The notes beneath the pieces were generated by a model. It was given only the letters and a program-made list of their open reading frames with translations, did no database searches and was not told where the DNA came from. This document shows, one piece after another, positions 6,001 to 12,000 of a stretch of DNA of 64,000 nt. This DNA is from Octopus sinensis (taxonomy: Eukaryota): NCBI RefSeq assembly GCF_006345805.1, contig NC_042999.1, forward strand, positions 104,160,001-104,224,000, written 5' to 3'. Made by a program: the position numbers and the translations under genes. How positions within the stretch are numbered: the stretch's first letter is position 1; every line of letters begins with the position of its first letter.

Positions 6001-9000
6001 CAGCAAACAATATTCTCCCTCATTTCTCCTGTACATTTTGGTTCTTAAGCCACTGCAGCAGAAATTGGAGGTGTTAAGGGGCACCCTGTTTGAATAGGAT
6101 ATGTACAAAACCTCAATTTCATGGTGTTGAACACCATAGAAGTTGAGGCAGCTGGTATTGTATTGAAGGAATACAAAATGGTAACAGAAGCTTCTATTAA
6201 TCAGGATAAATTGCTCCAGTTTTCATCTGACTAGACTGGAACTTCTCTTTAGTTTCTTGTAGAAAGAATGTGTTTTGCAAGATATTCAGTCTCAAAAATT
6301 ACGCCTGAAATGTTCTCAGGCAGTCACAGTTCTCTACAAGTGGTCAATAGTATTGATAGTACATCAGCTCTTGCCTTCAATGATGAGTTAGAACTAAGGA
6401 AGAGGGACATGTTTTCAGACATTCTGGGCACTGATAAAAATCATTTGAACAGCCTTTTCCAGAAGACTTTTAGCTTGGTCATTATGGACAACTTCCAGAA
6501 GTCCTAGGCATTGCAGTGCTACCAGAGGTTGTAGCTGGTTTAAGATAAATGTTACAGGCCTGGCAGTGCTATCTGCCTGGCTTCATTGAGATGCATGCAG
6601 GACAATGAAACCATTCTGTATTCATTACTCAGTGTTTGAGCATTGCTGAAATGTAATTACATTGAACAGCTGTATTTGCAACTTCCAGCTGAGTCCATTG
6701 TGAGAATTATCCTACCAATTTCCTTTGGTTGGGAACAAGCAGTTTTTCCTTGTGTGGTGGGTAAGATTGAAAGGACTGAAGACAGATAATTTTGTTTTCT
6801 TCAACTTTTTTAAGTTCCATTTGGAAAGGAAGTTAGGGTGGAGATGGAGACAGTGTTCTCCTGTAAATTTACTGAAAGGTGGGTGAGAACAGCTAGAATT
6901 GTTTATGTGAATGAGAAAAAAGCCTGTCAAGGTTAACCTTTGCCCTTTCATCTCTCCAGGTCTCAATAAAATAAGGTTCCCATCAAGTACTGGGTTGATC
7001 TGAAATTCCCATAAAGCATCCCGAACTTGAATGGAATTATAATAGAAAAATAAAGCTCTTTGAGCAGACATGATCAAAATTATTCCAACTATGGCCTTCC
7101 TGTTTGTTTGAGGAATATTTATGACTACACTATCTAATGTCTACTCCTTCAATTTTAAGATGGAAATATTTGATTTTGAGGAAATTTGGTTGCTATTTTT
7201 AGCAGGTTACACAGTCACATAAAAGGTCCCTTATGGCTACCTTTGATTTTGTTGTTGCTGTTATTGATGTCCTTGCTGCTGCTGCTGTTGTTGTTGTTGC
7301 TGTTATTACCATTCATGTTGTTCTGTTCACTAAATACACACACATGCACGCACACACACACACATACATATATATATATATATATATATATATATATATA
7401 TATATATATACATGCACATAAATATACACACATGCACACATGCATGCATACATATACATACATGCACATGTACACATACATACATGTACACTTGCATGTG
7501 TACATGCATACATACATATATATATATATGGACACACATGCACACATACACATTCATGCATGCATACATGCATACATAGTCATACACACTCACACATGCG
7601 CACACACACACATGCGCGCACACACACACACACATTCCAGCATAATAAACATCAATAGCTCAGTAGTGCTGGATCAATAATGCATGGTTTCCTCTGACAG
7701 CATCCTAAATCTTTCATGCAGAGATAGCTTCACCTGCTGTTCCACATGATGGCACACCTCATCAATACAACACAACATATATCTTACCACAGCCTTATAT
7801 AACATAACAACATCAAAGAAGCCACTATATGGTCACTAGATCTGTTAAAAATAGCAGCTAAATCTCCTTAAGAATCAGACATTATTATCTTCAAAAATAT
7901 GTAACAGAGGCAATACAGTTCTATATATAAGAGATTAGGGATTATGTACATTATTTACATTTGACAGATATTTGTCCTCATCTTGCTTGTTGTTAACACA
8001 ACATTTTGGCTGATATACCCTCCAGCCATCATCATGTGTTTTGGGAAAATTTCGAATCTGGGTTCTCATTCCTAAGGTATTTTTCAATGTTATTATTATT
8101 ATGTGAGAAAGCAGTACATGCCATCAAAGTGACACTGGGGTAAAATATATGAAGCCCAGTATACCCATCATGACTACCCGTCTGATAAGGGTATACTAGG
8201 CACATGCATCACAACCATATGTGCGCGACATGGTGATCTCATATCAAGATAAACAGCACATGACCTTGCAAGTGGGGCCCAGTTAGAATTTTCTTCTGGT
8301 TGAGTAACCTATCCTGCTCAATTATTATTATTATTATTATTGTTATTATTATTATTCAGGTCACTGCCTGGAATTGACCTTGGAATCTTGGGGTTAGTAG
8401 CCTGCACTCTTAACCACTATGCCCACAGGCATATGGCGTAGTGGTTAAGAGCGTGGGCTACTAACCCTAAGATTCTGAGTTTGATTCCAGGCAGTGACCT
8501 GAATAATAATAATAATAATAATAATAATGCCCTGATGCAGTACCAGGCAGTGGCTATGCCCTGATGTGGTACCAGGCAGTGGCTCTCATGACTTCTGATC
8601 TTAACTGATTGGAAGTGTTATCATGTACATTGTTTTGTCTTGGTATAAAAGATGGGCTACAGCAAATATTCTGCTCAATACCACAGATTTGCTTGTCAGT
8701 TGTTTGACTTTAACCAGTTGAGCATGTCCCTTAGTGGCTGACGATATGTGCATCTCTGATCACGAGCAGAAGTAGTGGGGGAGCATCATAGCCATGTGTT
8801 GTGAGGGATTCTTTGGAGTTTGAATAATTCACCTCTGGAAAATGGGTGGTTCTTTCAACATCCTTAAACAACCCTTATTCAGGGACCTTTTGAGTGGGAT
8901 GGGCTACTCAACCTGAAGAAAATTCTAACTGGGCCCCACCTGCAAGGTCATGCGCTGTTTATCTTGATATGAGATCACCATGTCGCGCACATATGGTTGT

Positions 9001-12000
9001 GATGCATGTGCCGAGTGTACCCTTATCAGATGGGTAGTCATGATGGGTATATTGGGCTTCGTATATTTTACCCCAGTGTCACTTTGATGGCATGAACTGC
9101 TCTCTCACTCAATAATAATAATAATGATAATAATAATAACATTGAAAAATACCTTAGGAATGAGAACCCAGGTTCGAAATTTCCCCAAGACAACTAATGA
9201 AGGCTAGAGGGTATATCAGCTGAAATGTTTTAACAACAAACAAGATGAGGACAAATATCTGTCAAATGTAAATAATGTAAATGATGTAACAGAGGCATTC
9301 AAAAATTGACATATTCAAAGAAACAATATGGTCGTAATATGGAATGACTTTTACTCAGTCAGGGGTTGACCTATGACTAAACAATAAGAATGCAAGCCAA
9401 ATGAGGGAGCCTCTATATAGTTTCTCTGCTTGAAATGACAGCTAAAATCTTTTTCAAATTACACTCTACCATCTATAATAAAATGATATTGGCAAACCTA
9501 ATTTGACATAGTCAAAAAAAGACAGAATGATCACAACTGACTTGCCTTTGATCACATGTCTGCTCAATCAAGGTTTGCTTAGGGTTAAAAGATAGCCATA
9601 TTATGTTCTGTCTCGTCTCACCTGCTTTGCAATTTTGCTTAATGTTTCTGTAGCATTTGAAAAGCAGATAAACCACAAATTATGCCCAGGTTATTGACCT
9701 TCCATTTTATGTACTTATTTATTGATTTATTTTGTTATGGTGCTTGCAGGACATTGTTGATGTTATTTAACCTTAAGTCAACCTTCATCAAAGACATCTC
9801 ACCAGTAACCAGCCTGTCCTTTTGTAAGTGGACAATATTATCTTATGTGCATTTTCTTTTCTTAAAAGTGATCTGGTATGATTTGAAGAAGATTTGGCAG
9901 CTATTTCTAGTAGTTAATTATCTCTTGGTCAACCCTGATCCAAGATGCTTATGACCACATCACCAGCTATTTTTCATCATTGTCATTATCCTCATCATCA
10001 TAATTTAACATCCATTTTCCATGCTGGCATAGGTTGGATGGCTTAACAGGAACTTGCAAGGCCAGGGGCTGCACCAGGTTCCATAATCTGTTTTGGCTTG
10101 GTTTCTACAGCTGGATATCCTTCCAAATGCCAATCACTCTACAGTGTTTTTTATGTGGCACCAGTACCAGAGCTTTTTACATGTCATCAGCACCATGAGC
10201 TACATTAGATATATATATATATATATATATATATATATATATATATATATATATATATATATATATATATATATATATATATATATATATAACTCATTCA
10301 TGGCTTGGCACACCAGTACAAGTGCCAGTAAGGCGACAAAGATCAGGAAGGCCGTCCACGTCACGTGCATGCATGCTCATGACTGACAAGTCCGAAATGG
10401 GAAAGGCAGGTCCGTGAGCAGTGTCCACAGACGAAGGTAACATCCGGTGCGGTGTCAGAGGCGGCTCGTGCCTTCCTCCTGCATCTCTTGTCTTTAAGTG
10501 CGTCTCTTCTTTGTTCCTCAAACTTGCTGACTGCATTGAAGATCGTGTGGCGCCAGACATCACGGTCCGCAGCCAGGTCTGACCAGCATTGCTGGTTTAT
10601 ATGACATGCTGTTAGAGACTTCTTGAGGCAGTCTTTGTTGCACTTCCTCGGAGCTCCTCTCACACGGTGGGCGGTGGAGAGTTTGCCAAACAGGGCAATC
10701 TTAGGATATATATATATATAGATGTATGTATATAACATATATGTATGAGTATATCTATGTATGTGCATGCCTTTGTCTTTGTGTTTGTTCCCTACCATCA
10801 CTGGATAACTGTTGTTGATTTGTTTACATCCCTGTAACTTAGCAGTGCAGCAAGAGAGACCAATAGAATAAGTATCAGACTTAAAAAGAAAATGTACTGG
10901 GGTTGATTTGTATTATTAATGGCTAAAACAAGTAAAAAATAAAAGATATGTTAGTCAACACCAACATCTATCTCTGGGTACATGGTCTTATGATATACAA
11001 CATACAAAGGCCCCTGGCTTTCTTTCTTCAACAACATTGGTAGTGAAGACAAGGGAGATTTCCATGCATGGGCATCTACTGGTCTTCAATAAAAAATTCT
11101 GTTCAGATCTGTATCTTGGAGAGGAGCTTTCCAATTGCAGATTCTTATGATATAGGCATGGCTGTGTTGTAAGAAGTTTAATTCCCTAACACATAGTTCT
11201 GGGTTCAATCACTCTGCATGGCATCTTGGTAAGTGTCTTCTACTACAGTTCTGGGCCAGCCAAAGCCTTTTGAGTTGATTTGGTAAACAGAAACTGAAAG
11301 AAGCCTGTTGTATATATATATGTGTGTATGTGTGTGTGTGTGGTGTGTGTGTGCGTGTGTGTGTGTGTTTGAGTCTGTGTTTGTGTCTGTGTTTGTCCTC
11401 ATCACTGCTTGATAACCAGTGCTGGTTTGTTTATTTCCCTGTAACTTAGCAGTTTGTTAAAAGAGATTGATAGAATAGGTACCAAACTTAAAAAAAGTTA
11501 GTACTAGGGTCAATAAATTTGCTGAAATGCTTTGAGACAGTACCTCATCAGGGGCTCAGTCTAATGACAGAAGCTAGTAAACGAGATACAATAAAGTTGA
11601 CCACAACAACATTAGAACTCACAGTGCAGAATGTTAGAATAAATATAGCCTATCTTATATGAAAGCACATGGCTCAATGGTTAAAGCAATGTTTATCAAA
11701 GTGGGCGGTATTGCCCCTGGGTGCGGTGAAAAGTTCCAAGGGGGCATTGAAGAAAAGGGGCGATAATGGGGTAGCAATTCATGTAAAATGTGGGGCAATA
11801 ATGGGGTAATGATTCATATAAAAACAACAAAATAATGGGTTTATTCAGTTAAGTTTTATTTGTGAAATACAATTGCTTTGAATTTGCTTCAGAAAGAGGT
11901 CTCTGTTTGTGATGGTTACTTGGGGTGGAGGCATGAGGAATGCAGCCTGGGTGTTAAGAGGGTGGCAGCCTGAAAAAGTCTGGGAACCACTGGGTTAAAG

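Follow-up and report, generated by a model that had tools for sequence, protein, structure and literature searches.

A tRNA-headed palindrome in the octopus genome: terminal repeats of a Penelope retrotransposon with a candidate RNA polymerase III promoter

Penelope/Poseidon retrotransposons, as described in the accessible parts of the reports on PAc of Anolis (PMC11167929), Penelope of D. virilis (PMC2377424) and Pen of Adineta (PMC3846280), carry an open reading frame (ORF) for a reverse transcriptase (RT) with a C-terminal GIY-YIG domain. Their pseudo-long terminal repeat (pLTR) consists of the 3' untranslated region (UTR) plus the start of the ORF, which a hammerhead ribozyme overlaps; reverse transcription begins at two sites about 30 nt apart, and insertions carry an inverted pLTR, a target-site duplication (TSD) and a tail on one arm. 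Here, we describe a family sharing these features, represented by a palindrome at positions 7899-9297 of the window, a 64,000-nt stretch of Octopus sinensis contig NC_042999.1 (104,160,001 to 104,224,000). Unlike the described elements, the octopus family has a pLTR that opens with tRNA-derived A and B boxes, which fix its 5' end, and its unit is free of runs of four T (T4). In D. virilis, by contrast, the internal promoter is TATA-less, with initiator (Inr) and downstream promoter element (DPE) motifs (accessible part of PMC2377424).

Partial likenesses are found in other systems. The Schistosoma repeats SM-alpha and Sj-alpha combine a tRNA-related RNA polymerase III (Pol III) promoter with a type I hammerhead in a short repeat, but in the accessible parts of PMC6765202 and PMC4918200 they are tandem and non-coding, with a canonical hammerhead that excises monomers from multimers, whereas the octopus unit belongs to a coding element as its pLTR, occurs dispersed and head-to-head, and has its ends set by RT start sites. 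Non-LTR retrozymes, which are non-autonomous derivatives of Penelope, are short hammerhead repeats homologous to pLTRs (bioRxiv 10.64898/2026.07.22.740005 and PMC7229834, as far as accessible); they differ in forming head-to-tail tandems, and the accessible part of the bioRxiv report mentions neither tRNA nor Pol III. A Pol III gene-derived segment within a retroelement terminal repeat is known from Cassandra, Helenus and Ajax, which, in the accessible part of PMC10886601, are non-autonomous LTR elements, whereas the octopus element is an autonomous, protein-coding Penelope. For cephalopods, the accessible parts of PMC13282606 and PMC8967140 list both Penelope and tRNA-derived short interspersed element (SINE) classes and draw no link between them. 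No tRNA-headed or Pol III-transcribed Penelope was found in the literature searched, although Repbase, Dfam and supplements (PMC13282606) may hold the family under another name.

Family identity of the palindrome

The original prediction, made from the letters of the window, read the palindrome as a Pol III-driven SINE that uses the 3' end of a Penelope-like element (PLE). The core it proposed for the family, CTGATGA/GAAAC, is borne out by 1,499 exact genome-wide matches to the 35-nt CTGATGA...GAAACG motif, against none for a reversed-pattern control; a 26-nt hammerhead motif has 3,504 exact matches, again with no control match. Because 8 of 76 arms not selected on the 35-nt motif match it exactly, we estimate the family at about 33,000 arms (18,000-75,000). 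The expected linkage of head and tail also held in both directions: a same-strand tail lies downstream in 24 of 29 head-anchored loci, and a head lies upstream of 81 of 118 complete tails, while the headless tails that were inspected are mostly truncated or carry another element inside their (AAT)n.

The borrowing of a Penelope 3' end by a SINE, in contrast, did not survive. A PLE with the same tail does exist, and it is an autonomous Penelope in the same genome; head, spacer and tail are all parts of its pLTR, and the tail is coding. At locus L179, the sequence upstream of the head is a decayed ORF in which the RT and GIY-YIG motifs of Penelope are recognisable, and the same sequence, variably truncated at its 5' end, precedes the head in 13 other loci. 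The head directly follows the ORF in 29 of 30 ORF-anchored loci (some of them near-duplicates), with 29 nt between the stop codon and tRNA position 1. The tail aligns in a single frame with an 847-aa homolog (residues 19-719, 49%), and an in-frame ATG stands 30 nt upstream of the hammerhead, which falls inside the first 25 codons. In L389, L395/L396 and L412, the copy begins at the head and continues in line through spacer and tail into the ORF. Given the ORF-head junctions, the in-frame tail and these in-line copies, the palindrome is a pair of Penelope pLTRs and not a stand-alone SINE, a conclusion that we regard as practically beyond doubt. Its domain labels come from homologs, which are labelled PF00078, PF26215 and in some cases PF01541, and from motif reading; a direct Pfam scan of the 551-aa L201 ORF returned no family, which counts against the assignment. 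A spliced 5' UTR with its acceptor at stem I, in the style of Drosophila Penelope, was considered and is unneeded with an in-frame ATG at this distance.

In its composition, the element agrees with Penelope in having a single ORF with RT and C-terminal GIY-YIG, and with Penelope/Poseidon in its hammerhead-containing pLTR of 3' UTR and ORF start, its inverted 5' pLTR, its TSD and its 30-40-nt tail on one arm. Visual inspection of L201 showed no sign of the extra Zn-finger in the RT-endonuclease linker that marks Neptune and Nematis. With tRNA-derived SINEs, the unit shares a tRNA-related head containing internal A and B boxes, but it is not a non-coding one independent of its partner retrotransposon, since both head and tail lie within the element. 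Nor does it form the head-to-tail, hammerhead-cut tandem monomers of non-LTR retrozymes and SM-alpha; direct repeats are only occasional. Some annotated tRNA SINEs may actually be Penelope pLTRs.

Several further observations concern the coding element. Five loci (L387, L400, L404, L409 and L413) hold internally deleted Penelopes in which the start of the ORF jumps to its end or to the head; they are flanked by direct pLTRs, keep the sequence past the start sites and could be real non-autonomous sources. Two other Penelope proteins, P0003 and P0120, begin with a translated hammerhead (PDDG...PKR and PDDGG...RRN), so that in several families the ribozyme is read as protein. Penelope ORFs also occur in prokaryote genome bins (L361-L385), many from apparently host-associated samples, and are likely eukaryotic contamination. 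Head, tail and ORF are covered in sequencing runs X15, X16, X21 and X22 of three organisms (A, D and B), suggesting that the family is older than their split or shared among them.

The tRNA-derived head as a promoter

The general view assigns the transcription of autonomous retrotransposons to Pol II, or to Pol I in the case of R2, and that of SINEs to Pol III. Three observations on the octopus family point across this division. The first is the position of its 5' ends, mapped in 149 loci whose arms include 139 with the 3' end of a head. Among the 88 arms that reach the head start, 78 stop within -20 to +3 of tRNA position 1; the stop rate there is 0.054 per nt, compared with 0.003-0.014 elsewhere, a 4- to 20-fold excess. 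The second is the state of the head itself, in which the family A and B boxes are at consensus, whereas the acceptor stem is unable to pair. Among six amino-acid classes of tRNA retrieved from the same genome, the head is nearest to tRNA-Arg(TCT), with 49 of 73 positions identical. The tRNA-derived octopus retroposons OK, OR1 and OR2, which Ohshima and Okada described in 1994, reportedly have a tRNA-Arg-related head and a similar length. As a tRNA fold, the head is weak: the Rfam tRNA model gave no match on one family head and 12.2 bits (E 3.9) on another, and ARAGORN found no tRNA in the window. Trimming by RNase P was considered as a source of the 5' ends and judged unlikely, because by eye the acceptor stem cannot pair. 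A tRNA-like segment at the pLTR position was found in none of 104 other Penelope-related loci, many of them truncated; the single tRNA-like match, in L322, lies outside that element's pLTR.

The third observation concerns terminators. In animals, T4 terminates Pol III transcription. Eleven long copies of the element (26.5 kb) contain 196 runs of three T (T3), 10 of T4, each private to one copy, and no T5, compared with 493 T3 and 180 runs of T4 or longer in 40 Penelope ORFs of equal T content and equal T3/T2 ratio. These controls were taken from other organisms, all 30 of 30 loci for a 43%-identity protein in this genome belonging to the same family. Counting the family once, 14 shared T3 runs and no longer run occur over 2,738 columns (P 0.013), whereas 27% extend in controls. 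The 668-codon frame of L224 has no TTTT, against 4.3 expected from control codons (probability of none, P0, 0.006) or 3.1 from its own codons (P0 0.034), and codon-level nulls together give P0 of 0.006-0.036. For the genome's own tRNA genes (n=30), the first T run downstream is exactly T4 in 15 and longer in 10, with none within 40 nt in 5.

The 5' stops at the head, the perfect A and B boxes and the lack of any shared TTTT in the 2.7-kb coding unit therefore suggest Pol III transcription of a coding retrotransposon. Pol III probably starts at the head, as the original prediction supposed, although the promoter would drive a coding Penelope rather than a separate SINE. In the right arm of the palindrome, the head spans 8425..8503 on the forward strand at full length, with the predicted A box (8434-8444) and CpG-decayed B box (8477-8488) in place, and RNA would start at 8425-8427. 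That Pol III transcribes the coding unit in its entirety has about an even chance.

A number of points weigh against this interpretation. The T-run result comes from one family and is a single evolutionary observation. TTTT is likewise absent from matched 1.1-1.6-kb stretches in 4 of 84 control ORF segments, and tRNA-Lys(TTT) genes of this genome contain an internal TTTT, so that a T4 does not terminate in every case. Pol III RNA carries no cap, which leaves its translation unexplained, and the head carries a two-codon upstream ORF. The one mapped Penelope promoter, that of D. virilis, is LINE-like. Two RNA and two other sequencing runs, compared at 85% likeness, covered all 30 bins; the RNA runs are unstranded, their depth tracks DNA copies, and ends accumulate neither at the head nor at the cleavage site, which gives no evidence either way.

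Some of these points would suit an ordinary Pol II Penelope with an old tRNA-SINE insertion in its 3' UTR, an alternative that we consider improbable. Under it, the 5' ends would gather at the head because RT stalls there or a Pol II start lies within it, and the missing TTTT would reflect chance or an A-rich strand bias. Head plus (AAT)n does resemble a simple SINE, the mapped D. virilis promoter is of the kind such an element would use, a capped coding RNA is easier to translate, and Phe codons prefer TTC even where no T4 would arise (22:8). The run spectrum is normal up to T3, however, and drops sevenfold exactly at T4; all four TTTT-free control segments have T4 in their wider span; and the pLTR regions of three control elements are T-rich, whereas this pLTR has no T-rich stretch. 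Moreover, the boxes are perfect where the cloverleaf is not, and the 5' stop lies 9-10 nt before the A box, the expected Pol III start.

The abundance of short copies could also be read as a true SINE that arose from the pLTR, has its own Pol III transcription and uses the Penelope protein in trans, which comes close to the original prediction. This is compatible with a Pol III-transcribed Penelope, and we rate it as improbable. Every full copy has an internal promoter, short arms outnumber ORF-linked ones among head-reaching arms by 78 to 10 (about 8 to 1), rare shared alleles imply many source loci, and short arms are slightly less diverged (5.2% versus 6.8%, p 0.011), a gap that is confounded by the selection of short arms on exact motifs. 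Against this, no diagnostic allele distinguishes short from ORF-linked arms, and ORF-containing copies share the 5' site, so that internal initiation on the element RNA already explains short copies. PAc, furthermore, depends on RNA that includes the first 172 nt of the ORF (PMC11167929), apparently past the start sites, and solo copies are without this stretch.

If end-to-end Pol III transcription is true, a Penelope with a tRNA promoter and purged terminators would blur the division between Pol II and Pol III elements and show one way for SINE-like copies to be shed by a coding element; it would also prompt one to ask how a protein of about 850 aa is translated from RNA that Pol III leaves uncapped.

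Paired arms and the hammerhead cleavage site

Across 125 loci, 75 head-to-head pairs and 69 single arms were counted, four duplicate loci and L094 having been removed beforehand. The 3' ends of the pairs are regular, with 68 long+short, 6 short+short and 1 long+long combinations, and a TSD of 10-18 nt flanks 31 of 61 pairs, compared with 0-1 in 20 shuffles. The TSD-flanked palindrome of the original prediction is thus real, although it is the ordinary form of a Penelope insertion: an inverted pLTR, a TSD and a tail on one arm are the known signature (accessible parts of PMC3846280 and PMC8557442), which is explained by priming from both target strands at two start sites of reverse transcription (PMC11167929).

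The arms of an insertion share more than their form. Non-CpG substitutions common to both arms number 33, against 8.9 expected (500 permutations, maximum 20), and rare ones 8 against 0.9. Gene conversion was considered as their origin and rejected, as CpG decays are shared only about as expected (19 against 16.4, summed over listed CpG alleles). Arms of a pair differ by 9.3%, hardly less than the 9.5% between pairs, because most changes postdate insertion. The common substitutions and the strict long+short pairing therefore indicate one source copied twice; two active sites may have worked on the two start sites of one RNA or, less probably, two RNAs of one locus may have been copied. In the head-to-head pair L395/L396 (G000:C4:154069000-154071500), both arms reach 360-430 nt into the ORF, showing that reverse transcription can also begin further downstream.

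The ribozyme of the family is a minimal type I hammerhead with a CUGANGA/GAAA core, a bulged base before stem II, a G10.1-C11.1 pair, a stem I of 4-5 bp and a palindromic, loop-less stem III; it is the minimal dimer-type hammerhead of PLEs (min-HHR; accessible part of PMC4209133). Among non-CpG changes in the core, the most frequent (8 of 76 unselected arms) is at N7, which is a free position, and the minimum-energy dimer fold does not take the ribozyme form. Stem I was predicted as aacac/gtgtt, whereas the family has GACAC/GTGTT, and the change that gives 'aacac' is private to the left arm. The idea that the ribozyme makes the 3' end also failed, because the element continues for about 55 or 85 nt past the cleavage site before it ends.

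A trace of cleavage may nevertheless be recorded in the arms. A 3-nt deletion that removes the cleavage triplet has 453 exact genome-wide matches, compared with 3,504 for the intact form, and is carried by 25 of 151 arms that were not selected for it, whereas any other deletion is seen in at most 4 of 190 arms. It is also present in 6 of 36 scorable ORF-linked arms. By pairs, both arms carry it in 4 cases (3.4 expected), one arm in 20 and neither in 34; partners of deletion-selected arms are intact in 8 of 9 scorable pairs, and among deletion-bearing pairs with a common substitution, it is confined to one arm in 6 of 8. This distribution suggests that the deletion arises arm by arm, and it is moderately likely to be the scar of a reverse transcriptase crossing self-cleaved RNA. 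Exactly 3 nt would be lost if a cDNA stopped where the 3' cleavage product begins and then re-annealed on two bases of the 5' product. Two points speak against a scar: deleted and intact arms are equally diverged, in a test made powerless by the family's lack of age spread, and the PAc hammerhead is dispensable in vitro, with no RNA ends at its site (PMC11167929).

The deletion might instead have nothing to do with self-cleavage, being either the product of a DNA site prone to slippage or an old allele that came with a second RNA; we hold this to be unlikely. A 2-nt direct repeat does lie at the site, inside a palindrome, and the deletion keeps the reading frame. However, at ten other positions where the microhomology is as long or longer, among them an AAC tandem, no more than 2 such deletions are seen. 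A second RNA finds room in the possibility that the excess of shared substitutions stems from only part of the pairs; against it, pairs with up to three common substitutions still differ at the deletion, and strict long+short pairing is not expected of two independent RNAs. Equally unlikely is the related suggestion that the palindrome forms by fold-back of the cDNA, as proposed for rotifer Penelope. Junction palindromes exist and self-priming has been put forward (accessible part of PMC3846280), but a first-strand deletion would then appear in both arms.

Taken as a whole, the account that we favour, with a fair degree of confidence, is a Pol III-transcribed Penelope that primes on two strands and leaves palindromic short copies with a scar. 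Pol III would start about 2 nt ahead of tRNA position 1 and read through the TTTT-free unit. The Penelope protein would cut the target with a stagger, giving the 10-18-nt TSD, and both strands would serve as primers for reverse transcription, which would begin at the distal start site from one strand and at the proximal site from the other, most likely on a single RNA. As these sites would lie only about 220-280 nt from the RNA 5' end, most products would be short promoter-to-start-site copies, and two cDNAs joined at their far ends would make the palindrome. Where the RNA has cleaved itself, each reverse transcriptase would cross the nick, and about one arm in six would re-anneal on a 2-nt GU homology and lose 3 nt.

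The pLTR pair, the TSD and one longer end are already known as an insertion signature; new are the tRNA-derived promoter with the lack of TTTT in a coding Penelope, the copying of one source twice and the deletion at the cleavage site. The combined claim, of an autonomous coding retrotransposon transcribed end to end by Pol III from a captured tRNA promoter, with a 2.5-kb frame purged of TTTT, tens of thousands of insertions that preserve ribozyme cleavage in vivo as a 3-nt scar, and one RNA copied twice from two primed target strands, is put forward tentatively, at a little short of an even chance. Penelope integration and the role of the hammerhead are described as open questions in the accessible parts of PMC8557442 and PMC11167929. 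The roughly 33,000 arms constitute a fossil record in which the pairing, the variants within pairs and the per-arm deletion offer predictions for the existing in-vitro system.

Layout of the locus and later insertions

At the locus itself, the predicted 14-bp TSD, ATGTAACAGAGGCA, occupies 7899..7912 and 9284..9297 on the forward strand, has no other occurrence in the window and agrees with the TSD statistics of the family. Between the two copies stand inverted arms that are 88-92% complementary, and the reading of the palindrome as one insertion is upheld. The left arm, on the reverse strand, ends in a pLTR tail at 7913..8088 that has the long 3' end, from the distal reverse-transcription start with its extension of about 30 nt; it comprises the first 50 or so ORF codons, with the ATG at 8069-8067. 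On the forward strand, the tail of the right arm (9140..9283, ATG at 9160-9162) has the short 3' end from the proximal start, so that the left arm, reaching 7913, extends about 30 nt further than the right, which ends at 9283.

Both arms hold the decayed hammerhead motifs that had been predicted. The left copy (7995..8040, reverse strand, ATGATGA at 8035) has an intact cleavage triplet and a damaged core; the right copy (9189..9231, forward strand, CTAATGA at 9194 and GAAAT at 9222) is short of 3 nt at the cleavage site, the recurrent deletion of the family. In Rfam searches at the locus, neither the tRNA nor the hammerhead model matched, and only microsatellite-driven microRNA noise was returned. 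The left tRNA-derived head (8355..8423, reverse strand) is truncated by about 8 nt at its 5' end and joined to the right arm through GGGCA/TGCCC microhomology.

The head-(AAT)n-tail order predicted for each half does not hold as stated: each (AAT)n is interrupted by an unrelated repeat, which leaves the palindrome lopsided. The right spacer runs over 8504..8528 and continues at 9111-9139 on the forward strand, and its left mirror lies at 8322-8354 and 8089-8102. Without passengers, an arm consists of a head of about 75 nt, (AAT)n and a tail of 145 or 175 nt; some 800 nt of the 1.4-kb palindrome belong to two later insertions of an (AAT)n-targeting repeat. The right arm holds 584 nt of it (8527..9110, forward strand), a full 555-nt copy with a 29-nt 5' duplication, 96-98% identical to young copies, and the left arm a 5'-truncated 219 nt (8103..8321, reverse strand, 93-95%). 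The two passengers differ by 6.4% and are unequally similar to young copies, and they therefore represent two separate insertions, which entered the spacers after the palindrome had formed.

This repeat gave 3,119 search candidates, of which the 40 best copies are 96-100% identical. The possibility that its 555-nt body is part of the element was rejected, as 28 of the 30 best loci have no nearby head or tail; all 30 fetched loci lie in (AAT)n or beside another copy. It is a young (96-98%) and abundant repeat (window 8556-9110; L032-L060) whose 5' end is fixed. Its insertions lie in (AAT)n microsatellites, frequently with short 5' duplications or as tandem copies, and no tRNA head was seen in it. 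We presume it to be a non-autonomous partner of a Dong/R4-type long interspersed element (LINE). In L071, L075, L091, L119 and L174, what appear to be the 3' ends of two LINE families lie in the (AAT)n spacer of the pLTR and split head from tail; the spacer is a landing pad. Elsewhere in the window, a degenerate interstitial TTAGGG tract occurs at 33928-34041 and a GC-rich 123-nt tandem repeat at 22664-22972.

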